Positions 20,076 to 60,113 of a DNA stretch of 64,000 nt are shown piece by piece. The stretch's first letter is position 1, and each line of letters opens with the position of its first letter. A program made the translations under genes and the position numbers. The stretch is from the NCBI GenBank assembly GCA_964497255.1, contig CAZCCI010000001.1, positions 69,751 through 133,750 on the forward strand, in the 5' to 3' direction. The notes under the pieces are model-generated. The model searched no databases. It worked only from the letters and a program-made list of their open reading frames with translations, and was not told the origin of the DNA. This DNA is from an uncultured Staphylococcus sp. (GTDB lineage Bacteria > Bacteroidota > Bacteroidia > Bacteroidales > Muribaculaceae).

Positions 20076-20179
20076 TACGGTTCTCCCTCATGAGATTTGC
20101 GGTCTCCGGACCGCTTTTCTTTTGCTCAGTCCGACCCTGTTATATTATTCCCTGACCTTTATAAGCCATTGCATGAATC

Positions 20180-20351
20180 CATCCGTAAGGAGTCGCGTGA
20201 TTTTATGTCGGCAAAGTTAAGGACACCTACGGATACGTCAAGGCCCGACGGCACCGTGCCACGGCATCACCCCTGCTGCTCTGGCAGCCTTGTCTTAATC
20301 CTTTCAGGTATCCTTTCTGAAGCCTGTAAAATTTCACGGCAACCCTCCCGG
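20180..20351 (+). promoter_or_regulatory. Long hairpin family A copy 1, candidate ssDNA promoter
   Basis: CAAAGTTA (20212-20219)-N19-CAA = inverted TTG-N19-TAACTTTG; caaggc/gccttg and gtgatttta/taaaatttcac stems. Confidence 0.7.
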
Positions 20352-20399
20352 AAATGAATTAAAAAAGAGGGGAATAACAACTTAAAAAACAATGTTATA

Positions 20400-22425: not shown

Positions 22426-22613
22426 ACTTATGCTTATCCTTACAAGTTCCCTTGACCGACACTCTTCCTGACAGCCATCCTATAATCCGCACTGATATGC
22501 CTTCCCTCCCTTCCTTCCTTACTTTTTTATTCATAGTCAGCCTATTCTATACTGCGCCAGGTTTTCCATTATAATAACAGAGCCTTTTTTAGATCTGGGG
22601 GTATCAAGTGCCA

Positions 22614-22786
22614 TCCGAAAGGGAGCCGTCGATTTTTATGTCGGCGAAGTTAAGGCCGCTCGTGGATATGCCAAGGCCCGGCGGCACGTGCCACGGCATC
22701 ACATGTGGTGCTGTGGCAGCCTTGTCTCAATCCACCGTTTCACGTCCTTTGAGATTTGCCGAAAAAATTGATTCGGCCCCTTACGG
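22614..22786 (+). promoter_or_regulatory. Long hairpin family A copy 2, candidate ssDNA promoter
   Basis: CGAAGTTA (22645-22652)-N19-CAA; arms pair caaggc/gccttg, gtggat/atccac, tcggcgaa/tttgccga. Confidence 0.7.
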
Positions 22787-22862
22787 AAACGGACTTTGAA
22801 GAAAGGGAAAAAATCAATCGCTTCACAGAAAACATAACATTAATCTTTTAGCATCAACGAAA

Positions 22863-23504: not shown

Positions 23505-23656
23505 CTAAAAACAATAATCGACAATCCGACCTTACTGCGCCGGATTGCCGGTATTTAACGTAGCAAGGTTCCTGTTATACTTTCTTCTTCCCCCTTTTTA
23601 ATGATGTAAGTGCCGCGCTTTTGTAATAAAACGACGGAAGGTCATTTGTAAAATTT

Positions 23657-23826
23657 TCCGATGGCCCGGGAGGGCTGCCGGTGATTCTGCGGCAAAGTTG
23701 GAGGCCGGGGTAAATGTCAAATCGGGGCCGGAGGTCACGGCTTCGCTGTGAATTTGACTCATTGCCCCTTGCGCCTCCCCTGTAATGCCTGAAATCTTAA
23801 GACAGCCCTCCGGCGGACCAAACGGA
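23657..23826 (+). promoter_or_regulatory. Long hairpin family B copy 1, candidate ssDNA promoter
   Basis: CAAAGTTG (23693-23700)-N17-CAAA; gtcaaat/atttgac, gggg/cccc, ggaggc/gcctcc, ggagggctg/cagccctcc. Confidence 0.7.
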
Positions 23827-23846
23827 TCTAACGGGAGGGATAAAAA

Positions 23847-25104: not shown

Positions 25105-25300
25105 TGTCCGGAACCGTCACTGCCGGTGGTTATCGGCGCGAAGGTCAGCATCCGGGCTTATCAGCCAAGGTTGCACGGAGTTTCTGCGAGATTTTACATC
25201 CATACTGTAAAATCATCTTGAAAACCTTGTCCCTAAAGCCTCTCGGATGCTCCTGTGTTGCGCAGATAATCACCTCATGGACGGCTCCTGAAGGAGCAGG
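25105..25300 (+). promoter_or_regulatory. Long hairpin family C copy 1, candidate ssDNA promoter
   Basis: CGAAGGTC (25139-25146)-N19-CAA; shared core AAAATCATCTTGAAAACCTTGTC. Confidence 0.65.
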
Positions 25301-25327
25301 AAAGTGAGGGAAAGAAAAATCAGATAT

Positions 25328-28300
25328 ATGGCATACAACAAACACAAATCATTTGAGGATAATGTCAAAGCGATAGAAACCGCACTGACCGTCCTCTCGC
25401 AGAAGCGAAAGGCTACCGAGCCGAAGAAAGAAACAATGTCGCTCTATTCGGGCTTCGGAGGTATCAAAGAGGTGCTGAACATCGGCACTGAAAAGCCAAT
25501 CCCTCAAAGCATGGAGGAAACGGCAAACCGACTGTTGACAGTCCTCGGCAGTTTCCCAACCGACAAAACCCATTGGTGCGACACAACCATTGAAAGCATC
25601 AAGACATCGGTACTGACCGCATTTTACACCCCTGCATTTATAATAAACGCAGTGGCACGGCAGATACAGTCCACGTTCAAGACACACGGACTTACGATGC
25701 GCACGTTCCTTGAGCCGAGCGCAGGCATCGGCGGCTTCCTGCCTGTTGCCATGAACAACACCAAGTCATACGCTTTTGAAAAGGACACGCTGACAGGCAT
25801 AATCCTCTCCCTGCTCAACGACGATACCGAAACCTATACGGCAGGTTTTGAGAGCATCGGGGAACAACGGTTTGAGCATACATCTTTTGACGTAATCGCC
25901 TCAAACATACCATTCGGCAATTTCCGTGTGTTCGATGCAGACCTGTGGAAGAAAGGCGGCATACATGAACAGTCCACCAAGACCATACACAACTACTTTT
26001 TCGTAAAGGCAATGGAACTGCTCAACGAGGGCGGACTGCTTGCTTTCGTTACATCGAGGGGCATAGCCGACACTCCCGGCAACAAGTTTGTGCGTGAATA
26101 CCTTGTGAACAACGCCAACCTCATAAGCGCAGTCCGTCTCCCCGACAACATCTTCATGCAGACAGGCGGCATTGAGGTCGGGAGCGACCTGCTCATATTC
26201 CAAAAGGACACAGCCAAATCCGGCCCCACATCAAGGGAGGCGATGTTTCTCCAGACCTCAAAGGAAAAGCACGGCGAGGAAAATACGGAACCATCAAACC
26301 GTCTTTTCACCATGCCGAAAACAACACTGTCAACCGACAGCCGCATTGTGAAAAACCAATACGGCAAGCTGACACGCAGATATTCATGGTCGGGCGGCGA
26401 GGCTTCAATGGCTGACTATCTCGCAGCCATACTGAAATACGATTTTGAACGCAATTACAGGCCAGGGCTTTTCTCCAATCCGGGAATTGGCAGACAGGCG
26501 CAGATGTCGCTTTTCGGAGATTTGGACATCGCGTCGGCAAAAGGACGGCGTGGCTATACCGGGGAAATGCCCGAATGGTTCAAAGAGGGCGCACTGGTAG
26601 TTTTCGAGGGTCAGGTGGGAACGCTTGAATACCGCAAGTCAACCCATTATGAAGATATTGCCGTCGATTTCGTGCCTGTTGACAACGGAAGCGTGAACAT
26701 CGAGAGGGCAAACGACTATATGCCGTTGAGGGGTGTCTATTTTGAACTTTCCAACAAGGAGAGGGAGGAAAAGACCGAGCAACCCGAATTAAGGGAGCGA
26801 CTGAACAGCCTTTATGACGCTTTCACCGCCAAATGGGGCTTCTTCCACGATAACGACAACAAGGAATTTATCTCTCTTGACAGCCTCGGAAACGAGGTGC
26901 TGACACTTGAAATGGCTGTCGGAAGGGAGATTTACAAATCCGACATCATGCGTGAGCCGGTGGCTTTCAAAAAGACGGACACATCGGTGAGGCTTCTCCC
27001 CATGGAAGCACTCGCAAGTTCTCTGAACTATCACGGTCAGGTCAACATCGACTATATGTGCAAGACCGCAGCAATGACCGAGGACGAAATCACCGGAGCA
27101 CTCAAGAACGAGATTTTCTACAACCCAATTACAGACTGTTGGGAGCATAAAGGCCGTTTCATCGGCGGCGACATCGTTACCAAACTGCGAGATGTTTCCG
27201 AACTGCTTCCGTTCCTTGACGAGCGCAAGAGGTCTTTTGCCGAAATTTCTGCAAAGGCACTTTCCGATACGTTGCCCGAACCTGTGCCGTATGAGGAACT
27301 TGACATAAACATGGGCGAAAGGTGGATTGACCCGAAACTATACGCCTCTTTTGCGTCATATCTTTTCGGGGTGGATGCCGAGCTGATGTACTTTGACATA
27401 AACGACACCTACCTGCTCCGGCTCACGGGATATTCAGCCGTCGCCTACAACACTTATTCCGTAAGGAACTGCAATGGCGAGGATATGTTTGTCTATGCGC
27501 TACAGGACACCGTACCCGAATTTACAAAAGAGGTGTATATCAACGGCGAAAAGACCCGTGTAGCCGATGAAGATGCCATACAGGAGGCAGCCGCCAAGAT
27601 ACAGGAGATACGTTCCACGTTCCGTGACTGGCTCGACCGTCAGCCCCTGCCTGTCCGTGACCGGCTTGTAGCCGAATACAACAGCCGCTTCAACTGCTAT
27701 GTGCGCCCGTCCTACGACGGATCGGCTCAGACTTTTCCCGGCCTCACATTGGAACATTTTCCATACGACAGCCTATATCCATCCCAAAAGGATGCCGTGT
27801 GGATGATAAAGCAGAACGACGGAGGCATCTGCTGGCATGAGGTCGGTGCCGGAAAGACAATGATAATGTGCGTGGCGGCTTATGAAATGAAGCGTCTCGG
27901 CATCGTCAACAAGCCTATGATTATCGGGCTCAAGTCCAACGGGCATGAGATAGCAGACACTTTCCGCAAGGCATATCCCATGGCTAAGATACTCTATCCC
28001 GGACGCGAGGATTTCACGCCTGCAAACCGCAAGGAGATTTTCTCGCAGATAAAGAACAACAACTGGGATTGCGTGATACTGACCCACGACCAGTTTTCAA
28101 AGATACCCCAGTCACAGGAAACTATGGCTGCAATCTTCCGGGAGGAACTTGCCGATGTCGAGCGTTGCCTTGAGGTTCTCGAGAACTCCACCATGCGCTA
28201 CCGCAGCTCTAAGATGCAGACAGGGCTTGAGAAACGGCAGGAGAACCTGTCCGCCAAACTCGCCGAATTGCGTCACGACATAGACCAACGCAAAGACAAC

Positions 28301-30316
28301 ACACAGGATTTCAACACTATGGGAATAGACCATATTTTTGTAGATGAATGTCATGCGTTCAAAAATTTAATGCTGCAGACACGCCATACAAGGGTTGCGG
28401 GCATCGGAAACACCAAAGGCTCACAAAGGGCGATGAACCTGCTTATCGCAATCCGTGACATTCAGAGGCGCACAGGCCGTGACCTCGGAGCCACATTCCT
28501 GTCAGGCACGGTTGTTGTCAACGCTCTTACCGAGCTGTATGTGATGTTCAAGTATATGCGTCCGCAGGAACTCAAAAAACAGCGGATAAGCTGCTTCGAT
28601 GCGTGGGCGGCAATATACACCGAGAAAAAGGCGGATTACGAGCTTGATGTCACCGGCAATATCAAGCGCAAAGAGCGTTTCCGTTCATATATAAAGGTGC
28701 CTGAACTTGCCTCATTCCTCCGTGAGATAACGGATTACCGCACAACGGACATGATTAACCTCGATGTTCCCGAAAAGAACGTGCGCTTCCTCTCCAATCC
28801 CCCGACTATCGAGCAGGAAGAAATGGCTGGGAGGCTTGTATCATTCGCCAAATCCGGAGAATGGGCTGACCTCGGACTTGATATGCCCGAACCCGACAAT
28901 CTCGACAAGGCTAAAATGCTTATAGCTACAAATGTAGCGAGGAAAATGGCTCTTGACATGAGACTTCTCGGCGATAAGTTCAGCGACGACCCTGGCAACA
29001 AGGCTTCGATATGCGCAAGGACAGTCTATGACTACTATGTGCGCTCAAACGCCAACCGTGGCACACAGTTCGTTTTCAGCGACCTTTCCACCTATAAACC
29101 CGGCGAGTGGAATATCTATCAGGACATCAAGGACAAACTTGTGGCTCTCGGAATACCCTCGGAAGAAATACAGTTTATCCAGTGCGCCAAGACCGAAAGG
29201 GCGAGGAAGAAACTGTTCGCCGACATGAACAGCGGCAGAGTGCGTGTGCTTTTCGGCTCCACAACCATGTTAGGCACAGGCGTTAACGCCCAGGAACGTG
29301 CCGTGGCGGTGCATCATCTTGAGATACCGTGGCGGCCGGCCGACATGGAGCAGCGTAACGGCAGGGCTGTCCGCAAGGGAAACACCGTGAAACTATGGGG
29401 TGGAAACACCGTTGACATCGTTATTTACGGAACGGAGAAAACTCTTGATGCCTATAAGTTCAATCTTCTGAAGAACAAGCAGATGTTCATAAATCAGATT
29501 AATAACGGCACGATTGCCGTGCGACGCATCGACGAGGACGGCATGGACGAGGAAAACGGCATGAACTTTGCCGAGTTCGTGGCAATCCTTTCCGGCAACA
29601 CCGACCTTTTGAAAAAGGCGAAGCTCGACAACAGGATTATGCAGCTTGAAAAGGAACAGGCCATATTCAAGAAAGAAAAAGGCCGTGCGGAGCGCAAGAT
29701 GTCGGACAATCAGAAAGCCATTGCAACAGCAGAGGATATGATTGCCAAAATGAATATGGACTACCGCTGTTTTGTTTCACGGAAAGATGATGCGTCAGTA
29801 ACCCTCGTATCCGGCACTTTTGCCACACCGCAGGAAATCGGGCGAGAACTTCACCGCATATCAAAGTCTTACCGGGGAACAGAACACAAAGCCGTCGGTT
29901 CTTATATGGGTTTACCCATGACGGTAAGGAGCGAGTTTAATATTGCCGAAATGTTCGAGCGCAACATCTTCTTCATCGAGGGAGCAAGCGGACTCAAGTA
30001 CCGATGCTCCCAATCGGGATCGTTGTCACTCTCATTCGTGGAAGCCGCCGCATATCCCTACGCTGTCATGGAACGTATGCCTGCCCGGATAGCTGAAAAA
30101 GAAAAGGATATAGCGAGACTGCGGGAAGAAATTCCGGTGTTGGAGGAAATCATAGGCCGCAGATGGCCTAAAGCCCCGGAGCTTGAAACTCTCAAGGCTC
30201 AATGCCGGGAGTTGCAGCAGAAGATTGAGGAAGACCTCAAAAATGCCGAAAAAGGCATATCGCTGTCCGATGGTATCTCGCCTGACAAGCCGACAATTAC
30301 CGAGGAAGCAGCCTGA
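25328..30316 (+). CDS. N6-DNA methylase / SNF2-like helicase fusion (DarB-like)
   Basis: LEPSAGIG and SNIPFG MTase motifs; HEVGAGKT, FVDECH, FLSGT, WRPADMEQRNGRAVR helicase motifs. Confidence 0.9.
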   Translation: MAYNKHKSFEDNVKAIETALTVLSQKRKATEPKKETMSLYSGFGGIKEVLNIGTEKPIPQSMEETANRLLTVLGSFPTDKTHWCDTTIESIKTSVLTAFYTPAFIINAVARQIQSTFKTHGLTMRTFLEPSAGIGGFLPVAMNNTKSYAFEKDTLTGIILSLLNDDTETYTAGFESIGEQRFEHTSFDVIASNIPFGNFRVFDADLWKKGGIHEQSTKTIHNYFFVKAMELLNEGGLLAFVTSRGIADTPGNKFVREYLVNNANLISAVRLPDNIFMQTGGIEVGSDLLIFQKDTAKSGPTSREAMFLQTSKEKHGEENTEPSNRLFTMPKTTLSTDSRIVKNQYGKLTRRYSWSGGEASMADYLAAILKYDFERNYRPGLFSNPGIGRQAQMSLFGDLDIASAKGRRGYTGEMPEWFKEGALVVFEGQVGTLEYRKSTHYEDIAVDFVPVDNGSVNIERANDYMPLRGVYFELSNKEREEKTEQPELRERLNSLYDAFTAKWGFFHDNDNKEFISLDSLGNEVLTLEMAVGREIYKSDIMREPVAFKKTDTSVRLLPMEALASSLNYHGQVNIDYMCKTAAMTEDEITGALKNEIFYNPITDCWEHKGRFIGGDIVTKLRDVSELLPFLDERKRSFAEISAKALSDTLPEPVPYEELDINMGERWIDPKLYASFASYLFGVDAELMYFDINDTYLLRLTGYSAVAYNTYSVRNCNGEDMFVYALQDTVPEFTKEVYINGEKTRVADEDAIQEAAAKIQEIRSTFRDWLDRQPLPVRDRLVAEYNSRFNCYVRPSYDGSAQTFPGLTLEHFPYDSLYPSQKDAVWMIKQNDGGICWHEVGAGKTMIMCVAAYEMKRLGIVNKPMIIGLKSNGHEIADTFRKAYPMAKILYPGREDFTPANRKEIFSQIKNNNWDCVILTHDQFSKIPQSQETMAAIFREELADVERCLEVLENSTMRYRSSKMQTGLEKRQENLSAKLAELRHDIDQRKDNTQDFNTMGIDHIFVDECHAFKNLMLQTRHTRVAGIGNTKGSQRAMNLLIAIRDIQRRTGRDLGATFLSGTVVVNALTELYVMFKYMRPQELKKQRISCFDAWAAIYTEKKADYELDVTGNIKRKERFRSYIKVPELASFLREITDYRTTDMINLDVPEKNVRFLSNPPTIEQEEMAGRLVSFAKSGEWADLGLDMPEPDNLDKAKMLIATNVARKMALDMRLLGDKFSDDPGNKASICARTVYDYYVRSNANRGTQFVFSDLSTYKPGEWNIYQDIKDKLVALGIPSEEIQFIQCAKTERARKKLFADMNSGRVRVLFGSTTMLGTGVNAQERAVAVHHLEIPWRPADMEQRNGRAVRKGNTVKLWGGNTVDIVIYGTEKTLDAYKFNLLKNKQMFINQINNGTIAVRRIDEDGMDEENGMNFAEFVAILSGNTDLLKKAKLDNRIMQLEKEQAIFKKEKGRAERKMSDNQKAIATAEDMIAKMNMDYRCFVSRKDDASVTLVSGTFATPQEIGRELHRISKSYRGTEHKAVGSYMGLPMTVRSEFNIAEMFERNIFFIEGASGLKYRCSQSGSLSLSFVEAAAYPYAVMERMPARIAEKEKDIARLREEIPVLEEIIGRRWPKAPELETLKAQCRELQQKIEEDLKNAEKGISLSDGISPDKPTITEEAA

Positions 30317-30495
30317 CATCACCATATATCTGACTTTTATTCCCTGTCCGGTTGTGAAACCAGGCAGGGATTTATTTTGTCATTATGGCATTGAACTGCG
30401 GTGGCGCAACTGCCTCTTTTAACACATAGCCTTTTCAAAAAATGCTTTATCCCCTTTGTTGCCTTCTTGCTCTCTTTTATACCGCTGCGCCCCGA

Positions 30496-30650
30496 CCCGG
30501 CATCCGCGTGGCTGACTTTGAGCGAGAGACGGCCTCGGCAATATTCCATGTTGCCCGGCCCGACACTCGCTTTCACAGCGGTAATCCGAAAAATGCCTGT
30601 CGGCCTCGAAGTCAGTACAGGCATAGGTTCCGTTTCCCTCCACTTACGCC
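30496..30650. repeat. Structured repeat family D copy 2
   Basis: agcgag/ctcgct, ggcc/ggcc, ggcaata/tgttgcc stems; shared tail GCATAGGTT.CG.T.C.CTCCACTTA. Confidence 0.6.
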
Positions 30651-30867
30651 CGTACTTCCATATCTTCGTTGACCGGCAATTTCCCTGATGGCTTACCTCT
30701 CATCCACACATGGATGCCTCCCGCCCTTCTTCCCCTTCTATTAACATGCTCCTTTTATATCGCGGATCAACTCCCTGAGCACCTGTTTCAGATATGCCGG
30801 GACATGCCAGTACACTTATATCCATCTCCGGGAACAGTTATATCCTGTACGGCTTTACAGATACCGT

Positions 30868-31035
30868 CCGTGACGGTTGCCGTGATTTTTGAATCGGCGA
30901 AGTTAAGGCCGCTCGTGGATATGCCAAGGCCCGGCGGCAGCGTGACGGGGCTTCGCCCTGTCAGCCTTGTCGTAATCCACCTGTGCAGCGACCTTCCTGA
31001 CTTGCCGAAAAAATCAGTCCGACAACCCTCCCGGA
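30868..31035 (+). promoter_or_regulatory. Long hairpin family A copy 3, candidate ssDNA promoter
   Basis: CGAAGTTA (30898-30905)-N19-CAA; left arm nearly identical to A2. Confidence 0.7.
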
Positions 31036-31096
31036 AGGAACTGATAAAAGTAAGGAAGAAAAAACAATATTTATCAACATCTTAAAAGTCAAGATT

Positions 31097-32794
31097 ATGG
31101 AGACCAAAGCAGTCAGAAAAGAAAACGTATCACTCGCCCTCATTCAGCCGAGCGCATTCAACCCTCGCAAGACCTTTGACGAGGCAGCCCTCAAGGAACT
31201 CTCCGACAGCATCGCCTCGCAGGGTGTCCTTCAGCAAATCGGCCTACGCCCCATTGCGGACACCGACCGCTACGAGATTATCTTCGGGGAGCGAAGATAC
31301 CGTGCGTCCGTCATGGCAGGGCTTGAGACTATCCCTGCCGACATATACGATGTTACCGATGATGAAGCGGTTGAAATCGCCGTCACCGAGAACCTTCAAC
31401 GTGAGGATGTCTCACCGATTGAGGAAGCAAACGCATACCAGAGCCTCATGGACAGCGGAAGATACGATGTGCAGTCATTGGCTGTGCAGTTCGGCAAGTC
31501 CGAGGCATACATACGCACACGACTGAAATTCACATCACTTATCCCCGAAATAGCGCAACTGCTGGAGGCTGACACTATCACAATGAGCGTGGCTTCCGAG
31601 ATATGCAGATACGGAACTGACATACAGAAAGAGGTTTACGAAAAACACCTCTGCGAAAATTCTTATGGCTACGGCTCATGGCGTGGGCTGAAAGCCTCCG
31701 AGGTCGCAAGGCGCATAGAGCAGAATTTCACAACCGACCTTGAGCGTTACTCATTTGACAAGGGAATGTGTGCCTCATGCCCCCATAACACCAAGAACCT
31801 ACTGCTTTTCTGCGAGGGAACTTGTGGAAAATGCACCAACCGCAAATGCCTTGAGGATATGAACACATCGTATCTCGTTGACAAGGCGGTGGATATGATA
31901 GCCCTATATCCTGCCTACCCTTTGCGACAAGGGCGATTTGGCACAAACGAGGCGGCGGTTGAGCGTCTTTCGGCTATGGGACATGAGATTGAAACTCCGA
32001 ACACATACATTCAGCCGTACCCTGCAATGCCGCAGGAACCGACTGCGGAGGAATACGAAACTGCCGAAGACTTCGCCGAGGCTCATTCGGAGTATGAACA
32101 AGACCTTTCCGAGTATAACGATGCCGTGGAGGATGTCAATGCCAGGGCAGAGAACGGAGAAATCATTGTCTATATTGTCATTGAAAAAAATGACATAAGC
32201 ATAGGATATGCGATGAAGCCGTCCGAGGCTTCCATGGACGGCACTGCTGACAACAAGGCGGACGACCCCATAGTGAAACTCGAGAAACAGGACATGCGCA
32301 ACAAGGAAATCGCCGTGGAGAAAACCGTGGCAGACACCAAGAAGCAAATCCTTGAGGCCGACATGACCGAGACCAAGTTCGGGCAGGACGAGGAAAGAAT
32401 GGTGTATTATTTCATGCTTTCATCGCTCCGAAAGGAACATTTCTCGGCTGTGGGGCTTACCGAGAAGCAGGCAGGCTGTCTTTCCGATGATGAAAAAATG
32501 GAGATAGTCAGCAATCTCAACGCCAGGACAAAGGCTGTAATCCGCAGGGATTATCTTATAGCCAATTTCAAGGAGGCATTCGGGAACAACACAGTTGCAA
32601 AACTGCTGCTCGGCTTCGCAAAGAAACACATGCCCGAACAGCTTGCCGAGATTGAGAAAGGCTATAACGAGGTCTATGAGAAACGGCATCAGCGCATAGA
32701 GGAAAGAAAAGCGGCTCTCATGCCGAAAAACGAAGAGCCGACTACGGAGGCAAACGAAACCTCCGAAGATGAAGCCAACGAGGAAGCGGCTTAA
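31097..32794 (+). CDS. parB: ParB/RepB/Spo0J family protein
   Basis: FNPRKTFDE, GVLQQIGLR, IIFGERRYRAS, ENLQREDVSPIEEA, HTH. Confidence 0.88.
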   Translation: METKAVRKENVSLALIQPSAFNPRKTFDEAALKELSDSIASQGVLQQIGLRPIADTDRYEIIFGERRYRASVMAGLETIPADIYDVTDDEAVEIAVTENLQREDVSPIEEANAYQSLMDSGRYDVQSLAVQFGKSEAYIRTRLKFTSLIPEIAQLLEADTITMSVASEICRYGTDIQKEVYEKHLCENSYGYGSWRGLKASEVARRIEQNFTTDLERYSFDKGMCASCPHNTKNLLLFCEGTCGKCTNRKCLEDMNTSYLVDKAVDMIALYPAYPLRQGRFGTNEAAVERLSAMGHEIETPNTYIQPYPAMPQEPTAEEYETAEDFAEAHSEYEQDLSEYNDAVEDVNARAENGEIIVYIVIEKNDISIGYAMKPSEASMDGTADNKADDPIVKLEKQDMRNKEIAVEKTVADTKKQILEADMTETKFGQDEERMVYYFMLSSLRKEHFSAVGLTEKQAGCLSDDEKMEIVSNLNARTKAVIRRDYLIANFKEAFGNNTVAKLLLGFAKKHMPEQLAEIEKGYNEVYEKRHQRIEERKAALMPKNEEPTTEANETSEDEANEEAA

Positions 32795-33034
32795 TATCCA
32801 TAATCATAAGACGATTGCAGGGGCTGTCATACGGCCTCTGCTTTCTTTATTCTGACTACACCGGTATATCCATTTATGACGGTGCCTCCATTCCGGGCCG
32901 CTCAAGCCTCTTATACTGTTTATGCCATTTCAATTACTCTTTTAATCAACGGGGGCACTGTTGATGAATCTGATTTAACGTCTGTCAGCCTTTTATAAAT
33001 TGCGGTTATTCCACTTTTAATCCTGCGCCTGTGA

Positions 33035-33190
33035 TCCGGGAGATGCCGTCCGTCGATTGTCACGGCAAAGTTGGAGGCCGGGCCAAATGTCAAATCATAG
33101 TCGGAGATCACGGCTGTCACCGTGAATTTGCCTTATTGACCCTTTTCGCCTCCCCTGAAAATGCCTGAAATCGGTCAGACAGCCCTCCGA
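33035..33190 (+). promoter_or_regulatory. Long hairpin family B copy 2, candidate ssDNA promoter
   Basis: CAAAGTTG (33066-33073)-N17-CAAA; homologous to B1. Confidence 0.7.
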
Positions 33191-33232
33191 CAGACCAAAA
33201 GGTCTGAAAAAGAGGGATAAAAATGTAAATTT

Positions 33233-33799
33233 ATGGCGAAAACGATAGACATTGAGCTTCAAAAGCAGTTGGATAAACCGCAGACATGGTTCTGCAAATA
33301 TTTTCCTGCACGCATACGCAACGTAGGAGAACGGGAGATAGCCGACCGTCAGTTGGTTTTTGATTTCAAGGACGGACGGGCATACGAGGAAGTCGCACGG
33401 CGCACGGCGACCGCCATGACTGAGCGTTACGGAGCAACGTGCGCCGACATTGTGTTTTCTCCCGTTCCGGCATCTACAAGAGAGAAGAACGAGATACGCT
33501 ACAAGGCTTTCAGCCAAATGGTGTGTGAACTCACCGGTGCAATAAACGGTTACGACCATGTATCGGTTTGTGGCGATAGAATGACCGTTCACGAGAACCG
33601 CAAGGCAGAGAGGGATGTCCGCAATGCTGTTGTCATTGAGTTTGACCCGACTTTTTTCAGCGGTAAAATGGTTGTGGTATTTGATGATGTGATAACGAAA
33701 GGTTTGAGTTATGCCATATATGCCAACCGCCTTGAAAGCCTCGGAGCCAATGTGCTCGGAGGTGTTTTCCTCGCAAGAACCCATTACAAAGTGAGATAA
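33233..33799 (+). CDS. Phosphoribosyltransferase-fold (ComF-like) protein
   Basis: FSPVPAS, PRPP loop VVVFDDVITKG. Confidence 0.8.
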   Translation: MAKTIDIELQKQLDKPQTWFCKYFPARIRNVGEREIADRQLVFDFKDGRAYEEVARRTATAMTERYGATCADIVFSPVPASTREKNEIRYKAFSQMVCELTGAINGYDHVSVCGDRMTVHENRKAERDVRNAVVIEFDPTFFSGKMVVVFDDVITKGLSYAIYANRLESLGANVLGGVFLARTHYKVR

Positions 33800-33800
33800 T

Positions 33801-34301
33801 ATGGTTCAATCAAAATATGATAAGTCTGTATCCGCTTGCTTCAGCGGACACCGCATCGTCCCATACTTTCATTTGAGACGACTTGAACGGCAATTAAGGA
33901 CAACGATAATCTCGGCATACGCTGACGGCTGTCGAAATTTCTTCTGCGGCATGGCTATGGGCTATGATTTGCTGGCAGCGGAAGCCGTCCTTTCTCTACA
34001 GTCTGAATTGCCGGATTTACGGCTCATTGCCGTTATTCCGTATCGTGGACAGACCGAGAGGTGGAGAGATGCCATGAAATCCCGGCATAATGACATTCTG
34101 CGTAATGCAAATGATACTGTGATTCTGAGCGAACACTACTATCAAGGCTGTCTGCTACGGCGCAATGACTATATGGTAGTCCGCAGCTCACGACTTATTG
34201 CATGGTATAACGGAAATCCTAAAGGAGGTACGTTTTACACCTGCCGTATAGCTAAGGCTAATGGATTAACGGTTATAAACCTGTATGACAGCCGTAATTA
34301 A
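33801..34301 (+). CDS. SLOG family (YspA/DUF1273-like) protein
   Basis: CFSGHR, GMAMGYDLLAAE, LRRNDYMV, GGTFYT. Confidence 0.85.
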   Translation: MVQSKYDKSVSACFSGHRIVPYFHLRRLERQLRTTIISAYADGCRNFFCGMAMGYDLLAAEAVLSLQSELPDLRLIAVIPYRGQTERWRDAMKSRHNDILRNANDTVILSEHYYQGCLLRRNDYMVVRSSRLIAWYNGNPKGGTFYTCRIAKANGLTVINLYDSRN

Positions 34302-34381
34302 TCGGCTGTTGTAATTTGCATCAATATCTCATATTTACTTTGATTAGGTAAAGATGCAATTTTGTGGCAAAATGGTGTCTT

Positions 34382-34996
34382 TTATAATTCGTTATAAATC
34401 CTGTCGAAAATCCGGCGCAGCCGGGGTTCGTCCTTTATAATCTCACGGAGTGAATTGAGCCTTTCTACGTTGGGCGACTCAGGGAACCAAAGTTTCAGAT
34501 AGCCTCCCTCGGCATATTTCTCATGCAGATGGCCAAGCGTGCGCTGCCAGTGGCCCTCTTTGTCAAGTTCGGGATAATGGTCGAGTCCGTATTGTACCGT
34601 CCTTTCGATTATCTTCTCCGGTTCGATGTAGCGATCTCCTTCTGCGACAATCTTGCCGTATATGCTTCGAGGTTCATGGTCGGACGATGCCCGGTGGTCT
34701 TCTACCGCCTGTGCCATTGTCTCTATTTCCTCTTGTGTGAACCACTCATGCAATCGTGGATCTTCCCGTACTATCCGCCCAGATTCAAGATGATGTGTCT
34801 TCCTGTCGATGGCAAGCCCTAAATCATGGAACGCTGCTATGGTATATACCATTTCCATGTTGAGGGCGTAATGCCGTGCAATGTCAAGGCTCTGCGCTAT
34901 GACCGTGCGGGCATGATCCTCCCGATGGGCCTTGTCGAATCCGTTGTACCTGGGCAGTATCTCCCTTTCTATATATAATGTCAGCCCTGTATTCAT
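34382..34996 (-). CDS. HD-domain phosphohydrolase
   Basis: HREDH, AFHDLG, EDHRAS, AEGDR. Confidence 0.85.
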   Translation of the reverse strand: MNTGLTLYIEREILPRYNGFDKAHREDHARTVIAQSLDIARHYALNMEMVYTIAAFHDLGLAIDRKTHHLESGRIVREDPRLHEWFTQEEIETMAQAVEDHRASSDHEPRSIYGKIVAEGDRYIEPEKIIERTVQYGLDHYPELDKEGHWQRTLGHLHEKYAEGGYLKLWFPESPNVERLNSLREIIKDEPRLRRIFDRIYNEL

Positions 34997-35048
34997 TGAA
35001 ATTATACGTTTCTATTCCAATCCTCTTATTAATGGATTTTGATTTTGT

Positions 35049-35081
35049 AATATCGGTAATTCTTGCAAAATTACCGATATT
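35049..35081 (-). promoter_or_regulatory. Palindrome overlapping a -7 element for the HD gene
   Basis: aatatcggtaat...attaccgatatt; CAAAATTA at 35066-35073 = TAATTTTG on - strand. Confidence 0.5.
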
Positions 35082-35194
35082 TTCTCTATTCATTCATTTG
35101 TTAGGTATAATTATTTAAAGTGAGAAAAACTGCTTAGACGGCAACTATAAAACAACCCCTAATAATGGAATTTGTGATGCTTTTGCACATATTA

Positions 35195-35413
35195 TTCTTT
35201 CTCCGGAACCTGTCCGGTCGGGTTTATAGGCGCGAAGTTTGGCATTGGGGAGCATAGCCAAGGTCGTGCCGAAGTTTCCGCGCCATTTTGCCGGTATCCG
35301 GAAAAATCGTCTTGAAAACCTTGTCACTTGCTCCTTTGAAAGATGCCCTTGTGATGCGCAGATAAACCCCTCGCGGACGGCTCCGAAAGGAGCAATAAAC
35401 GGGAGGGGAAGAA
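35195..35413 (+). promoter_or_regulatory. Long hairpin family C copy 2, candidate ssDNA promoter
   Basis: CGAAGTTT (35233-35240)-N18-CAA; gggtttat/ataaaccc, ggcat/atgcc, caaggt/accttg. Confidence 0.7.
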
Positions 35414-35435
35414 TAAACATTCAAACAATACAGAT

Positions 35436-35630
35436 ATGCAGACAAAAAAAATGACAGTCGAACAAGGAAAGCGTTGCAACATAAGCCGTTTTCCGAACTT
35501 TCACCGTTCCGGCTCTATCAAGGGTATGAAAAAATTGTACTACGGCAAAGATGCTTTGCTTGTACGTTGCGGACAATACATCTACAACGTGACTTCAGAA
35601 CCAAGCATATATAATCAGGCAACAATCTAA
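35436..35630 (+). CDS. Small basic hypothetical protein
   Basis: FPNFHRSGSIKGMKKLYYG..LVRCGQYIYNV; first ORF after hairpin C2. Confidence 0.7.
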   Translation: MQTKKMTVEQGKRCNISRFPNFHRSGSIKGMKKLYYGKDALLVRCGQYIYNVTSEPSIYNQATI

Positions 35631-35642
35631 TACGATACGGCT

Positions 35643-36176
35643 ATGAAGAAACTGATAATCTGGACAAGCGATACCTATCTTGACGATGACGCAAGAGAGG
35701 AATATCAGCAATGTAAACGAGAAGCCATTGATGATGATGACTACTGCGTTACTGACCGTGAGTGGGCAGAAGTGGTAAACGACTATCTCAATGACGAGCG
35801 CGGAAACCTTAACAAAGATGTTGAAGGCGTGATAATTGCTTTTGCTGATGTCGGCAGGTGGGACGGCAGACGGCAGGGCTACAAGATACTTGGTAGCACC
35901 ATAAATGATATTTTCAATATCTCGGAAGATAACAACGAATGGTACTCTGACGGCAACAACATCCGTGCTATACTGTCCCACCATGACGCATCGCACTATG
36001 TGCTCTACCGGGTGGCGAAAGACCGTGAGACAGCGGAGCGTATCGCCAAGCAAATATACAACCGCGAGATAGACGAGGCAGGCTTCCGCAAGCGCACTCG
36101 CTCCCTGCACCCCTATGTCGCAGAGATTTACGGCTGGAAAGCCGGTCGTTTCAATAAAGCCCGGAAAGCGGTATGA
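35643..36176 (+). CDS. Hypothetical protein
   Basis: Coupled ORF; ADVGRWDGRRQGYK, HHDASH. Confidence 0.75.
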   Translation: MKKLIIWTSDTYLDDDAREEYQQCKREAIDDDDYCVTDREWAEVVNDYLNDERGNLNKDVEGVIIAFADVGRWDGRRQGYKILGSTINDIFNISEDNNEWYSDGNNIRAILSHHDASHYVLYRVAKDRETAERIAKQIYNREIDEAGFRKRTRSLHPYVAEIYGWKAGRFNKARKAV

Positions 36177-36490
36177 AAAGATATAAATACATCAAACATA
36201 TTGTTGACAGGCTGACCAGTTCGGACAGCAACAATGAGGAATTTACTCTCTACAACCATCTTGTAGGAAAACAAAGCGGCATGGGAGGTTTCTTCGCCGC
36301 CACCATATATTCAGGCACTGACCGATATTCGGGAGAGGTCGCCGACTTCAGTTATGACTATTGGACACACAGTCTTTATATCGAGGATGCTGAAAGCAGA
36401 CATGCGGCCGATGCCATAATCAGTGCTTTCAAATCAATCTATCCATGCTGTCTGAAAATCATAGATGACACACAAAAAGAAGATATATGA
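36173..36490 (+). CDS. Hypothetical protein
   Basis: ATGA overlap with both neighbours. Confidence 0.7.
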   Translation: MKRYKYIKHIVDRLTSSDSNNEEFTLYNHLVGKQSGMGGFFAATIYSGTDRYSGEVADFSYDYWTHSLYIEDAESRHAADAIISAFKSIYPCCLKIIDDTQKEDI

Positions 36491-36699
36491 TGATGTTTCC
36501 CGATTTCAATGACCCTGCCTGTTCGGAGCAGGGTCATTGCACCGACTTTCCCGAATATGGAAAGCAGTGCGACCTTATTGAGCCGTGGCGCGGTTATCGC
36601 CGTGGTACCATTGTGGCACAGACTCCGAAAGGCTTTGTCATACAGTTAAGTTCCGGAGCCGAGATAGATGTCTATCCCGATGAAATAGAGATTGACTGA
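36487..36699 (+). CDS. Small acidic protein, paralogue of 23334 ORF
   Basis: C.L...WR....G.IV.......V..L.SG..I....D pattern shared. Confidence 0.7.
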   Translation: MMMFPDFNDPACSEQGHCTDFPEYGKQCDLIEPWRGYRRGTIVAQTPKGFVIQLSSGAEIDVYPDEIEID

Positions 36700-36800
36700 T
36701 GCAACAGACCGCTGACTATATAGGCACGGTTTTGCCGTCCCTATGCGCGGCGGCTGCGCCCATAACCTCTTATATAAACCAATGGATTTCTTCGATATTT

Positions 36801-36852
36801 AACTATATAACGGCAAAATATTTGGATTTTTGCCGTTGTATAGTTAACTTTG
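36801..36852 (+). promoter_or_regulatory. Operator-like inverted repeat and -7 element of AbiE operon
   Basis: aactatataacggcaaaa-N9-ttttgccgttgtatagtt abutting TAACTTTG (36845-36852). Confidence 0.75.
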
Positions 36853-36873
36853 CAGCTGCAAAAATGAACTCTC

Positions 36874-37605
36874 ATGATTGAGACAAGAGCCGCGATATTA
36901 ACTTACGCAAAAAGCCGGGAATCATTCCGGTTCACTGAGTTATTGTCATATTTGAACAGTTTGTTCGAGATCTCCAAAGTGACGCTGTCATGGCATCTGA
37001 GAGAACTGGTTAAGGATAACAGCTTATTCAAACTTGGAAGAGGAATATACACTTTGCAAAATGTTCAGACACGCAAATATGTCCCGCAGCTTGGGGACAA
37101 AATAATAAAAGTCGGGAAGGAATTATCCGCCTCATTCCCCTTTATAACGATAAGTGTTTTTGACGGAAATGTTCTTGAAGGTTTTCAGCATCATTTGTCA
37201 TTGAACAACCTACATTACATAGAAGTTGAACGGGATGCGATGGAACCGGTTTTTCATTTTCTCCAGAAACAGGGATATGTAGCATATCTTAATCCAAATA
37301 AAGATTTTGTATATAACTATATTTCTATGTCGGATGAAGCATTTATTGTTAAGCCTCTTATCTCAGAGTCTCCGTTGATAGATTTCCGAGGCGTAAAGAC
37401 CCCCAGCTTAGAAAAAATACTTGTAGATGTCATTTGTGACAGTGATATGGATTATCTTCATGGGAGCGAGTGGTATAGGATGGTTGATAATGCACATTCC
37501 ATGTATGCCATAAACCGAACCTCGATGCTTCGTTATGCCTCTCGTCGCAATGCAAAACAAACTATTGAAAAGGCTATTGAAAATTTAGGAACGAATTATG
37601 ATTAA
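36874..37605 (+). CDS. AbiEi-like antitoxin (wHTH, DUF6577-like)
   Basis: N-terminal wHTH LVKDNSLFKLGRGIY; TPSLEKILVD; upstream of AbiEii-like gene. Confidence 0.75.
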   Translation: MIETRAAILTYAKSRESFRFTELLSYLNSLFEISKVTLSWHLRELVKDNSLFKLGRGIYTLQNVQTRKYVPQLGDKIIKVGKELSASFPFITISVFDGNVLEGFQHHLSLNNLHYIEVERDAMEPVFHFLQKQGYVAYLNPNKDFVYNYISMSDEAFIVKPLISESPLIDFRGVKTPSLEKILVDVICDSDMDYLHGSEWYRMVDNAHSMYAINRTSMLRYASRRNAKQTIEKAIENLGTNYD

Positions 37606-38659
37606 GGAACATTGTTTCGGCAAAGACTGGTTCCAGGCCATGTCGAAGAAATACAAATATAATGACCTTGGAATTATTGAGAAAGTAATCAGGGCATACG
37701 CATTGTTGGACTTGCTGGCTCGTTCCGGATGTCCGTATATTTTTAAGGGAGGCACATGTACGGGTCTCATCCTCGGAGACAGAACCAGACGGCTCTCAAT
37801 AGACATTGACATAATCTGTCCGCCAGGAACCAATATCGAGGAATATCTCGGCAAAATCAAGGAGTTCGGGTTTACCCGAACAGAATTGATTGAACGACGG
37901 CAGGCAGGTAAAGATATTCCTAAAAGCCACTCCAAGTTCTTTTATCAAATAGCCTATACCGACAGAGCAAATCAGGAGTCATATATTCTTCTTGATGTTC
38001 TATACGAGGATACTCATTATTATAAGGTTAACCAGACAGAGGTTATCAACCAGTTCATAGAACTTGACTCAGAACCTTCTATTGTCAAGGTACCTTCAAT
38101 AGGAGACATTCTTGGAGACAAACTGACAGCTTTTGCTCCGAATACTACCGGTATCCCTTACTATAAAAACGGGAACTCGCGCTCCACCGAGATTATGAAA
38201 CAGGTATATGACATAGGCAGGTTGTTTGATGCAGTCAAAGATCTTAAAATAACGACATACTCGTTTAAGCGAATTGCGCAAGTTGAGCTTGGATATCGAA
38301 ATCTGGGCTCAGATTTAACATTAATATTCGAAGATATTCGCCTGACGGCTATGCTGCTTGCCACAAGAGGTCTCGAGGGTGAAGGTGATTTTCCCTTGTT
38401 GCAGGACGGCATCAAACGTCTCAGCTCATTCATATATGAGAACAAATATTTTATCGAGGATGCTATTGTCGATTCTACAAAGGCGGCATATGCTTCGACC
38501 TGTATTGAGAAAGGAGTCACCGGCATTCGCAAGTTTTCGCCTTCAGACCTAACTGCAGACATGACTATTTCAAAGGCACTCCCGGGTAGGCTCAACAAAC
38601 TAAAAAAGTCAAACGCAGAAGCATTCTACTATTGGTATCTTATAGACAATATGTTGTAG
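37598..38659 (+). CDS. AbiEii-like nucleotidyltransferase toxin
   Basis: IFKGGTC, RRLSIDIDI, ILGDKLTAF, KQVYDI. Confidence 0.88.
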   Translation: MIKEHCFGKDWFQAMSKKYKYNDLGIIEKVIRAYALLDLLARSGCPYIFKGGTCTGLILGDRTRRLSIDIDIICPPGTNIEEYLGKIKEFGFTRTELIERRQAGKDIPKSHSKFFYQIAYTDRANQESYILLDVLYEDTHYYKVNQTEVINQFIELDSEPSIVKVPSIGDILGDKLTAFAPNTTGIPYYKNGNSRSTEIMKQVYDIGRLFDAVKDLKITTYSFKRIAQVELGYRNLGSDLTLIFEDIRLTAMLLATRGLEGEGDFPLLQDGIKRLSSFIYENKYFIEDAIVDSTKAAYASTCIEKGVTGIRKFSPSDLTADMTISKALPGRLNKLKKSNAEAFYYWYLIDNML

Positions 38660-38676
38660 TCTATATTAGACTGATT

Positions 38677-38719
38677 ACTATACAGCGGCAAAATTGAATA
38701 TAATTTGCCGTTATATAGT
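38677..38719. repeat. Second copy of the AbiE palindrome, downstream of toxin
   Basis: actatacagcggcaaa-N11-tttgccgttatatagt. Confidence 0.75.
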
Positions 38720-38982
38720 GCGAGAATAATTGTTTTAGAATCAACGCTCAATATATCGTTCATGCAGTTGACTGAAACGACAACATAGACCAATAATCCA
38801 CATGTGATAGGGTTAATACTTTGCCGTCTGAATTGCACATCAGGCGGCTTTTCCCATATTATAATCTCACTTTCAATCACCTTTGTAAATTGGGGGACAA
38901 GTACCATTCTTTTGCCTTCCATTACAAGTTTGGCATAGTGAATGGAATTTTATACACTGGTTGCCTCTTATATGATTGCAGT

Positions 38983-39194
38983 TTCTATTCTCCCCGGGAG
39001 CAGTCTCAGTGGTTTATGGCGCAAAGTTCGGCATCCGGGAGCGACGGCCAAGGTCAGGCGTTGTTTCGGCGAGATTTTGCAGTTACCTAAAAAATCATCT
39101 TGAAAACCTTGTCTTTCGCCCCTTGTCGATGCCCCTGTGATGCGCAAATAAACCCCTCACGACAGCTCCATCGGAGCAAGAATGAGAGGGAGAA
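38983..39194 (+). promoter_or_regulatory. Long hairpin family C copy 3, candidate ssDNA promoter
   Basis: CAAAGTTC (39022-39029)-N19-CAA; ggtttat/ataaacc, gcgca/tgcgc, ggcatc/gatgcc, caaggt/accttg, gatttt/aaaatc. Confidence 0.72.
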
Positions 39195-39222: not shown

Positions 39223-39480
39223 ATGAACGAAAAAGAACTCGCACAGGCGATTGAGACCGCAGTCAACAACTACTCTTTCGACCCGAAGAAAGTAGCCTCG
39301 CAAGTACCCATGATGCACCGTACTCTCCAGCAGAGCGTCTATCGGCTCTGCAAGGCTATCATCGAGGTTATCGGGGCTGACGACTATGCCACCGACCCTC
39401 GAAACCAAGCCTCTCACAACGAGGCGAAGGCAATGCTCAACTACCTCAAGGAGCATGGACGCTCTATCCCCATGATTTGA
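39223..39480 (+). CDS. Hypothetical protein
   Basis: MHRTLQQSVYRL..DPRNQAS; first ORF after hairpin C3. Confidence 0.75.
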   Translation: MNEKELAQAIETAVNNYSFDPKKVASQVPMMHRTLQQSVYRLCKAIIEVIGADDYATDPRNQASHNEAKAMLNYLKEHGRSIPMI

Positions 39481-41977: not shown

Positions 41978-42472
41978 ATGCAAATGTTCCTTCATTTTTA
42001 TCCGGCAATAGTCACCATGCTGTCGATGTTCTTCTATCGCCGTGATACGCCGGGGATGCAGAAGTTCTATCGCCGGATGACGTTCAGCCTGTCGGCACGC
42101 AAACTTTTCGTATCGCTCCTTATGCTGCTGATGCTCTCCTTCAACTTCTGCTATCTGCAGAGTTACGGAGTGAACTGGGCCCTTGGAGTGGGTACGGTCC
42201 TATGCCTGTCGATGTTCTCTTTCCGCATAACTGAACGCAGCATCTTCTGGCTGCAGACCCGCCTCGGCATTGGACTTGGATTCATAGCCATGCTGACCTG
42301 CGTCATCGAACCGGCGATATGGCCTCTTTCAATGAATCTATACATATTCTCTATCGGTTCGGTCTTCTATCCGTCGGAAGAACTGATGCGGCAACTGAAG
42401 TCGCCGGAGAATTTTTCCCGATATACCGCTTGTGCGGACAGCACTCTTATATCAGGATACTATTCGCGTTGA
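41978..42472 (+). CDS. Hypothetical multi-pass membrane protein
   Basis: Several hydrophobic segments. Confidence 0.7.
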   Translation: MQMFLHFYPAIVTMLSMFFYRRDTPGMQKFYRRMTFSLSARKLFVSLLMLLMLSFNFCYLQSYGVNWALGVGTVLCLSMFSFRITERSIFWLQTRLGIGLGFIAMLTCVIEPAIWPLSMNLYIFSIGSVFYPSEELMRQLKSPENFSRYTACADSTLISGYYSR

Positions 42473-42605
42473 CTCCGGGAGGGTTGTCGTTCTGCAAAGT
42501 TAATCGCCGCATCCGGTTACTCTCCAAAACGGGCCGCCGGTCTCGCTGAGATTTTGGTTCGTAAGATACGGCAACTTGTATGGCAGAAAACAACCCGTTT
42601 CCCGA
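42473..42605 (+). promoter_or_regulatory. Long hairpin F1, candidate ssDNA promoter nearest oriT
   Basis: CAAAGTTA (42495-42502)-N22-CAAA; gggttgt/acaaccc, ttctgc/gcagaa, gccg/cggc, ccaaaa/ttttgg. Confidence 0.65.
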
Positions 42606-42656
42606 AGCCAATGAGAATGGTTCTCGAAGGTGAGGGAAACAATAAATCCCAGCACT

Positions 42657-44034: not shown

Positions 44035-44169
44035 AACGTGCCTTGCTTGCTTCCGGTAATAGCGGGTACACGACGGTTGCAGGAGGCCATTCCGAGCCTC
44101 TCTGATGTGCGCTGTGCGCCTATCCGGGTATATGCCTGACCGATTCCCGTGGTCATCGTCCAGGTTGGC

Positions 44170-44300
44170 TTATAGACAACGCGCTTGCGCGAAGTTGCCG
44201 GATTGTGAACCACCCGGGTAGCCTAATACCCCCTTCGGATTGAAAATCCTCTGGGAGTTGCCGTATCCGGCAGGCTGTTACGAGCAAGCTCGGCCTTTTT
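44170..44300. other. Candidate oriT
   Basis: Intergenic region just upstream of the relaxase with short inverted repeats (cgagc-aa-gctcg) and CCTCTGGGAGTTG (44248-44260), a motif I recall upstream of Bacteroidetes mobV genes. Confidence 0.5.
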
Positions 44301-44333
44301 AGAACTGTGTTTAACGCTCTAATTTACACTTAT

Positions 44334-52396: not shown

Positions 52397-52437
52397 ATAC
52401 TTGATGATTGGTTAGTTGGTTATGAATTAGTTTACAG

Positions 52438-52614
52438 TCAGTCCCGTGTAATGAGTCTGACATAGAAGATGCAGGCGATTGAAGTCTTCACGGTCTCAAA
52501 TACCGAGAATGCAATAGTCCACAAAAGACCCAGATGAGAGTAAATCACGAGGGTGATATAGCACAATATCAGCAGAATCACCACAAGCGCGGTGTAAAGG
52601 ACAATGCTTCTCAT
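52438..52614 (-). CDS. 58-aa hydrophobic membrane protein (below ORF-track cutoff)
   Basis: MRSIVLYTALVVILLILCYITLVIYSHLGLLWTIAFSVFETVKTSIACIFYVRLITRD; ATGA overlap with hydrolase stop. Confidence 0.55.
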   Translation of the reverse strand: MRSIVLYTALVVILLILCYITLVIYSHLGLLWTIAFSVFETVKTSIACIFYVRLITRD

Positions 52615-54173: not shown

Positions 54174-54175
54174 AG

Positions 54176-56539: not shown

Positions 56540-56557
56540 ATTATTCTGTTTCGATTA

Positions 56558-58339: not shown

Positions 58340-58340
58340 G

Positions 58341-59453: not shown

Positions 59454-59463
59454 TTTCGATAGT

Positions 59464-60111: not shown

Positions 60112-60113
60112 TG

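Follow-up and report, generated by a model that had tools for sequence, protein, structure and literature searches.

Family C hairpins of a Bacteroidales integrative conjugative element: candidate single-stranded DNA promoters with a conserved, putative leader stem-loop

The window analysed here, a stretch of 64,000 nucleotides (nt) from a Muribaculaceae genome (assembly GCA_964497255.1, contig CAZCCI010000001.1, positions 69,751 to 133,750), carries an integrative conjugative element with an array of hairpins. We found that three of these, together named family C, are homologous elements of ~210 nt on the plus strand (C1, 25097-25309; C2, 35190-35408; C3, 38985-39190), that each folds within a single strand as a long imperfect hairpin, and that the core of this hairpin is under selection. 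We give roughly even odds (a probability of about 0.5) to the reading that family C elements are single-stranded DNA (ssDNA) promoter hairpins within the conjugative element's leading region, standing in an array of about ten related hairpins. An earlier note on this DNA had proposed that such an element may be both an ssDNA promoter and an attenuator, with mutually exclusive folds switching the downstream leader on or off. Judged by the hairpin and by the geometry of promoter-like boxes on its minus strand, the promoter part of this proposal looks plausible. The attenuator or on/off part is not supported, and a two-level model, one level being the transferred DNA strand and the other the messenger RNA (mRNA), replaces it.

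The three related copies of about 200 nt, and the two sequence blocks quoted as common to them, are found as had been described. Alignment of C1, C2, and C3 gives a mean column identity of 79% over ~230 nt; the window contains exactly three occurrences of the 23-mer AAAATCRTCTTGAAAACCTTGTC (25209, 35303, and 39091; 0 expected by chance), and TGCGCARATAA lies 29-31 nt past it (25259, 35355, and 39141). The DNA minimum free energies (MFE) of C1, C2, and C3 are -48, -39, and -33 kcal/mol, with z-scores of -6.1, -3.1, and -1.5, respectively. The whole C1 element, consisting of a 5' flank, the core hairpin, and a 3' stem-loop, scores 167 bits with covariance model R1, and its core (25124-25276) matches all 153 positions of the model; the cores of C2 and C3 lie at 35218-35372 and 39007-39158. 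In the 3' arm of C1, the invariant block AAAATCATCTTGAAAACCTTGTC (25209-25231, plus strand) pairs with the arm bearing the -33-like box described below.

Using the covariance model, we found 109 further family C copies with 83 distinct cores in other Bacteroidales genomes and gut metagenomes. They come from 17 true loci in Muribaculaceae, Prevotella, Porphyromonadaceae, and other Bacteroidales, obtained by a pattern scan of one genome per species, and from 66 more loci obtained by a metagenome scan. Across the 83 distinct cores, 94.5% of the stem cells are paired, as compared to 41-51% when the partners are slid, and 16 of the 39 core pairs show changes on both sides (184 cells), values reached by none of 500 shuffles, although the family C sequences are related and the cell counts thus overstate the number of independent events. 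The long hairpin is strongly supported by this covariation. Family C is divided into four subfamilies, each tied to its own downstream gene: C1 to a DarB-like methyltransferase-helicase, C2 to a 64-amino-acid (aa) open reading frame (ORF) starting MQTKK, C3 to an 85-aa ORF starting MNEKEL, and C4, which is not found in this window, to an ORF starting MRTKR that is homologous to the MQTKK ORF. The family C model also picks up the other hairpin families of the window on the same strand (34, 24, 24, 20, and 9 bits); therefore, family C is one branch of a superfamily of about ten elements. A promoter reading of the elements is plausible and fits this wider array.

The sigma-A consensus of Bacteroidota consists of a -33 element TTTG and a -7 element TAnnTTTG. 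All ten hairpins of the window carry, on the 3' arm of the minus strand, a TTTG-like box followed 17-22 nt on by a TAnnTTTG-like box, and the motif nAACTTYGC is common to the same arm of these otherwise divergent hairpins. Two sister hairpins, at 20219 and 42502, match the -7 consensus perfectly with TAACTTTG (6/6). In C1, the inverted -7-like box GACCTTCG (25139-25146, minus strand) lies in an internal loop of the hairpin, and the inverted -33-like box CTTG (25166-25169, minus strand), 19 nt upstream, is fully paired. The corresponding minus-strand boxes are AAACTTCG (35233-35240) with CTTG 18 nt upstream (35259-35262) in C2, and GAACTTTG (39022-39029; 5/6 against TAnnTTTG) with CTTG 19 nt upstream (39049-39052) in C3. 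Among the 83 distinct cores, the -7-like box reads GAACTTCG in 49, AAACTTCG in 22, and GAACTTTG in 3, and CTTG is present 18-19 nt upstream of it in 70. In the minus-strand ssDNA ensemble of 84 sequences, positions 1-7 of the -7-like box are predicted to be 73-91% unpaired and the -33-like box only 2% unpaired; the 12 nt after the -7-like box are 17% unpaired across the 84 sequences. On the plus strand, no conserved conventional promoter was found upstream of the elements (a candidate of any kind occurs in only 13 of 85 contexts, and its position varies), and no sigma-70 box pair at 16-18 nt spacing was called inside them. Two other readings of such boxes were rejected: a sigma-70-type pair on the plus strand (TTGTCC and, 33 nt on, GATAAT) is not properly spaced, and as ordinary promoters of divergent genes the inverted boxes would lack a target in many cases, 41 of 70 contexts having no divergent ORF within 400 nt.

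The modelled geometry is that of a duplex -33 box and a pre-melted -7 box, with polymerase leaving the hairpin base along the minus strand. In the promoter reading, the minus strand would enter the recipient, and each element would fold to a hairpin of ~170-200 nt, the 3' arm of which would serve as the non-template strand, presenting the -33-like CTTG in perfect duplex and, 18-19 nt on, the -7-like nAACTTYG in an unpaired bubble. Host RNA polymerase would then start ~5 nt further downstream, within TGCGCARATAA (in C1, the conserved block TGCGCAGATAA, 25259-25269, plus strand), and transcription out of the hairpin base would yield plus-sense mRNA for the DarB-like gene behind C1 and for small unknown proteins behind C2 and C3. 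Both the promoter activity and this start site are inferred.

Downstream of TGCGCARATAA, all subfamilies have a stem-loop of ~40 nt, consisting of a basal helix (CCTCAC/GTGAGG), an internal loop, and an apical mini-hairpin. The earlier note had seen the mini-hairpin as a GCTCC-N4-GGAGC ending of every copy. This is correct for C1 (GCTCC-TGAA-GGAGC, 25284-25297) and C2 (GCTCC-GAAA-GGAGC, 35380-35393), whereas the loop of C3 has three nucleotides instead of four (GCTCC-ATC-GGAGC, 39165-39177). The whole stem-loops lie on the plus strand at 25273-25309 in C1, 35367-35408 in C2, and 39153-39190 in C3, with the basal helices CCTCAT/GTGAGG, CCCCTC/GAGGGG, and CCCCTCA/TGAGAGGG, respectively. Compensatory variants of the basal helix include CCTTAC/GTAAGG, CCCTCC/GGAGGG, and CCTTCACG/TGTGAGGG, and C4 has an extra helix that is either GGAT/ATCC or GGAA/TTCC. 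Consensus folding of the flanked elements (MAFFT and RNAalifold) was unusable owing to subfamily indels, and anchored counting and a small covariance model were used instead. In the alignment made with this second model, to which it was fitted and which favours structure, 94% of the stem-loop cells are paired as compared to 38-63% when slid, and 6 of 11 pairs show changes on both sides, unmatched in 500 shuffles. At the apex, 56 of 84 sequences have a GCTCC/GGAGC stem and C4 has CTTC/GAAG, and the loop over this unchanged stem is free in sequence and length (GAAA, ATA, TGAA, GGAA, ACA, and AGT).

The 5' half of the mini-hairpin (X') has two alternative partners, namely the 3' half of the mini-hairpin (X2) and a segment at the 5' end of the element (X1; GGAAC at 25110-25114 in C1, GGAAC at 35205-35209 in C2, and GGAGC at 38997-39001 in C3). 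The proposal that X' can pair with the 5' end was well founded, and both pairings are evolutionarily maintained: X1, X', and X2 co-vary, and both folds are populated in the predicted ensembles. The two pairings that had been quoted for it are real, albeit each with one mismatch: ggaaccgtc/gacggctcc contains an A.C on the plus strand (a T.G wobble when read on the minus strand), and gggagcagtc/gacagctcc contains an A.A. X1, X', and X2 read GGA(A/G)C, GCTCC, and GGAGC in C1-C3, AAAGC, GCTTC, and GAAG in C4, and GGA-T, AATCC, and GGAGATT in locus L086; in locus L078, X1 alone follows X' (TGAGCC with GGCTCA). The duplex of the X' region with its own 5' flank has a mean energy of -11.75 kcal/mol, as compared to -7.9 +/- 2.0 with shuffled flanks, and in C1 and C4, though not in C2 or C3, the own flank gives a stronger duplex than those of other subfamilies.

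The two pairings of X' differ in the strand that they favour. Of 75 distinct flank pairs, 53 give a more stable X1-X' duplex on the minus strand, where 86 G.T pairs stand against 41 on the plus strand. In contrast, the basal helix of the stem-loop has 41 G.T versus 6 A.C pairs on the plus strand, even with the choice of register biased towards A.C. This opposition points to two molecules, the transferred DNA strand and the mRNA, and not to a single bistable leader. In agreement with this, the long form (X1-X') and the mini-hairpin have probabilities of 0.57 and 0.32 in the minus-strand ssDNA ensemble, versus 0.40 and 0.51 in that of a full-length plus-strand RNA. Thus, the long form is assigned to the transferred DNA strand, whereas the stem-loop would belong to the mRNA, close to its 5' end, with the mini-hairpin looking like the tip of a conserved leader stem-loop rather than a terminator switch. 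In the ssDNA state, X' would pair with X1 and lengthen the hairpin base by ~15-20 base pairs (bp); in the mRNA, from which X1 would be missing, it would pair with X2 to form the tip of the stem-loop. The stem-loop is not a terminator, nor does it act as a switch of translation, and its likely role is to stabilise the leader or to free the transcript from its template.

Besides the relatedness of the sequences, through which the cell counts, the strand-signature counts, and the Wilcoxon p-value overstate independent events, several points weigh against the two-level promoter model. The mean DNA MFE of the core is -30.4 kcal/mol on the plus strand and -30.3 kcal/mol on the minus strand, i.e., without strand preference, and the folding energy of the full element is likewise equal on both strands. 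The wobble counts of the core follow whichever strand served to derive the structure and are therefore uninformative. Since neither core energies nor wobble counts show a strand preference, an RNA-level fold of the whole hairpin is possible. Moreover, the -7-like box of family C agrees with TAnnTTTG in most copies at just 4 of the 6 specified positions (4-5 overall), and by its sequence it looks promoter-like mainly through homology with the better boxes of the sister families. That the minus strand is the transferred one is deduced from gene orientation and box polarity, which is partly circular. Lastly, the co-variation of X1, X', and X2 reflects about two to three independent events, and X' or X2 also shows uncompensated single changes (GCACC, GGATC, and GGAAC).

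The two-level model can be extended to the idea that X1-X'-X2 is a selected three-part module in every leading-region hairpin family, with one sequence serving two physical states. We regard this extension as tentative and rather unlikely. According to it, X'-X1 would hold the promoter hairpin closed at its base on the DNA single strand that enters, and X'-X2, formed in the nascent RNA, would snap the 5' end of the transcript off the ssDNA template, so that the outcome would be translation and not an RNA:DNA hybrid primer. Alternatively, within the same idea, the side of the mini-hairpin, entering first, may delay closure of the base and thereby time the firing of the promoter.

Among the explanations that compete with an ssDNA promoter, we consider it unlikely that the whole 200-nt hairpin acts as RNA, i.e., as a structured 5' untranslated region or a processing or stability element made from an upstream duplex promoter, with the inverted boxes being coincidental. 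Such an RNA would fit with the equal folding of the plus strand, with several stem positions that are G.U on the plus strand (e.g., columns 31-128 and 47-113), and with the clear preference of the 3' stem-loop for that strand. However, the upstream plus-strand promoter it needs is not conserved, as described above, and a terminator-like hairpin (35049-35081) lies just upstream of C2. Coincidence would also have to account for an nAACTTYGC that is unpaired on the same arm of all ten divergent hairpins, with a paired -33-like box at promoter spacing. Nor does any Rfam family match: a search of the whole window with Rfam 15 at gathering thresholds gave 0 matches, and a permissive search around C1 gave nothing relevant, the sole match being a spurious CRISPR-DR (E = 2.5).

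The switch of the earlier proposal, in which one and the same molecule (DNA strand or transcript) changes back and forth between X1-X' and X'-X2 and thereby attenuates or licenses the downstream gene, is quite unlikely. Both pairings do exist and are nearly isoenergetic in the full-length molecule, their three segments co-vary, and on the incoming strand the mini-hairpin side would enter first and could fold ahead of X1. But the mini-hairpin is followed by an A-rich sequence such as AGGAAAGTGAGGGAAAG and by no T/U-run, and therefore is not an intrinsic terminator; a terminator scan likewise called nothing at 25284-25297, 35380-35393, or 39165-39177. The region of the start codon is predicted to be 63-83% unpaired whether the RNA begins at the 5' end of the hairpin or at the predicted start site, so it is equally accessible in both contexts. 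Apart from the opposite wobble signatures, which point to two molecules, the predicted transcription start lies within the 3' arm, and the mRNA would therefore lack X1 and could not switch. As a candidate within the leader, GAGGG was considered as a Shine-Dalgarno sequence and rejected, since 17-33 nt from the start codon is too far.

Another view is that the hairpins mainly serve DNA metabolism on the transferred strand, either by sso- or ssi-like priming or as a roadblock that delays duplex conversion. There are precedents for both, since transcripts from ssp1/Frpo of F prime complementary-strand synthesis and ssp2 stalls that synthesis (bioRxiv 10.64898/2026.01.09.698686), and the extra ~15-20 bp of the X1-X' extension would add stem stability on the minus strand. 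We find this view quite unlikely as the main function. Against it, every copy directly precedes a gene or operon that lies on the right strand, and copies and downstream gene families have evolved together (the DarB-like gene with C1, the MQTKK-MRTKR ORF with C2 and C4, and the MNEKEL ORF with C3); in addition, the conserved plus-sense leader stem-loop has no role in priming. Neither RNA-level nor priming or roadblock roles are exclusive of promoter activity. Very improbable are selfish palindromic repeats similar to miniature inverted-repeat transposable elements, or recombination scars without a function of their own, for despite the imperfect palindromes in several copies and an apparent shuffling of cassettes at hairpins (truncated C1-type copies followed by a C4-type copy in L012 and L014), a whole-genome search placed every copy of this genome inside the conjugative element, only 2 of the 401 genomes searched from the order contain the family, the copies keep a fixed orientation and place before specific genes, and the compensatory changes together with the invariant unpaired motifs indicate purifying selection on structure and sequence.

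The truncated C1-type copies (L012, 7289-7895; L014, 6792-7336) end right after GATAACCACC, without stem-loop and gene, and are followed by a C4-type element 390-450 nt downstream, which suggests cassette exchange or recombination at the hairpin base. A BLAST search with C2 against 72,556 plasmids gave no match. As for the sister hairpin families of the window (20170-20385, 22600-22810, 23650-23845, 30860-31065, 33030-33232, and 42380-42640), they repeat the three-part layout: a GGAG(G)-type segment on the 5' side pairs with CCCTCC on the 3' side, and further downstream a second GGAGGG or GAGGG directly precedes an A-rich leader. The whole hairpin array may thus share the X1/X'/X2 design.

The conjugative element adjoins mnmE and includes genes for an HTH_17 protein, a tyrosine integrase, a MobV relaxase, and ArdC-like proteins. 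Between 19 and 44 kb, the plus-strand genes, among them all those led by hairpins, are directed at the MobV-family relaxase gene (44307-45797, plus strand; NF041497, 166 bits against a cut-off of 100). They encode a ParB-N protein, a YpsA/SLOG protein, many small ORFs, and, directly after C1, the DarB-like methyltransferase-helicase of 1662 aa (25328-30316, plus strand), an assignment of the earlier note that a match to phrog_10089 at E = 1.6e-259 confirms. DarB-like, ParB-N, and ArdC-like proteins are typical leading-region cargo. The first genes after C2 and C3, both on the plus strand, are the 64-aa ORF (MQTKKMTVEQ..., 35436-35630), which also follows C2-type copies elsewhere, and the 85-aa ORF (MNEKELAQAIE..., 39223-39480), which is conserved behind C3-type copies. 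The origin of transfer (oriT) is presumed to lie directly upstream of the relaxase gene. In this presumed oriT region, GCGCGAAGTT, a motif common to the hairpin families, occurs once more at 44182-44196 (plus strand), ~110 nt upstream of the relaxase gene; the surrounding region (44040-44300) has only a moderate fold (z = -2.4) and no match to the family C model, and folding of the relaxase-proximal segment 44040-44310 showed no clear family C hairpin.

On the other side, a tightly packed minus-strand operon (50083-63574) without intergenic hairpins encodes ArdC-like proteins, M23 and glucosaminidase hydrolases, and a Toprim protein. Because this operon also faces the relaxase region, gene orientation alone cannot tell which flank is leading. 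Between C2 and a divergent HD-domain gene (34382-34996, minus strand), the terminator-like hairpin at 35049-35081 consists of a 13-bp A+T-rich stem followed by a T-run and would insulate C2 from upstream transcription. C2 and C3 (35218-39158) are 3789 nt apart here, as compared to ~1615-1645 nt in elements L003, L053, L083, L085, L030, L004, and L002. The extra ~2.15 kb between them matches a DUF6577/AbiEii toxin-antitoxin cassette (36874-38659), and the cassette therefore looks inserted between two hairpin-led units.

Promotion from ssDNA is an established principle in IncF and IncI1 plasmids, for their promoters of classes 1-3 (PMC11541004, PMC12672017). Our literature search found no report of ssDNA promoters in Bacteroidota. 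To our knowledge, they have been documented only for proteobacterial plasmids, with sigma-70-type boxes. If family C is active, Bacteroidales conjugative elements, which are major carriers of gut gene flow, would turn on anti-restriction genes such as that of the DarB-like enzyme before the second strand is made, and the principle would extend to a phylum with a very different promoter grammar. The design of family C, in which the -33-like box is double-stranded, the -7-like box lies in a bubble, and the 5' half of the leader stem-loop also serves as the hairpin base, gives concrete testable predictions, and setting aside the attenuator idea makes the hypothesis narrower.

The FopS small RNAs of Bacteroides were considered and set aside, the papers there being concerned with the regulation of polysaccharide utilisation. 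Several known systems resemble family C in part. Attenuators that act through intrinsic terminators likewise have a short G+C-rich hairpin, the 5' half of which has an alternative upstream partner. Unlike these, family C has no U-tract, leader peptide, or ligand domain, its start codon is not occluded, and the alternative partner probably lies outside the transcript. Origins of the ssoA/ssoU type give rise to a short primer, the end of which lies at a conserved motif in a loop (CS-6); the core of this motif, TAGCG, was not seen by eye in C1 or C2, for which no search was run. As proposed for family C, the folded strand of ssoA/ssoU of rolling-circle plasmids and of sso1 of ICEBs1 shows promoter-like boxes to host RNA polymerase, on DNA that is delivered by conjugation (PMC4595007). 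However, sso origins are not placed before each operon, whereas family C copies precede genes and carry a plus-sense leader stem-loop.

Also comparable are the ssDNA promoters of classes 2 and 3 in pESBL and F, located 5' of klcA, ardA, and M.EcoGIX, and ssp2 (PMC12672017; bioRxiv 10.64898/2026.01.09.698686). As would be the case here, distinct hairpin classes occur together in one leading region and drive anti-restriction and methyltransferase genes, and the stability of the hairpin base matters, ssp2 being a roadblock to conversion. They differ from family C in phylum, in promoter logic, and presumably in sequence, and their starts were mapped by rapid amplification of cDNA 5' ends, whereas that of family C is predicted. 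The class 1 promoters Frpo and ssi1-3 (Masai and Arai 1997; PMC11541004; PMC12672017) match the proposed picture of family C in being long imperfect hairpins before leading-region genes, with promoter boxes that become readable only once the transferred strand folds, anti-defence or establishment genes downstream, and several copies per leading region. Family C presumably has no similarity in sequence to Frpo and ssi1-3. In contrast to them, it has boxes that resemble the sigma-A consensus of Bacteroidota rather than TTGACA/TATAAT, its -7-like box lies in a bubble, its host is an integrative element with a MobV relaxase, and its promoter is a predicted one. We know of no description of a co-varying X1/X'/X2 module or of a leader stem-loop for Frpo; if the module is real, it would be a design rule for ssDNA transcription that is new relative to Frpo-type promoters.

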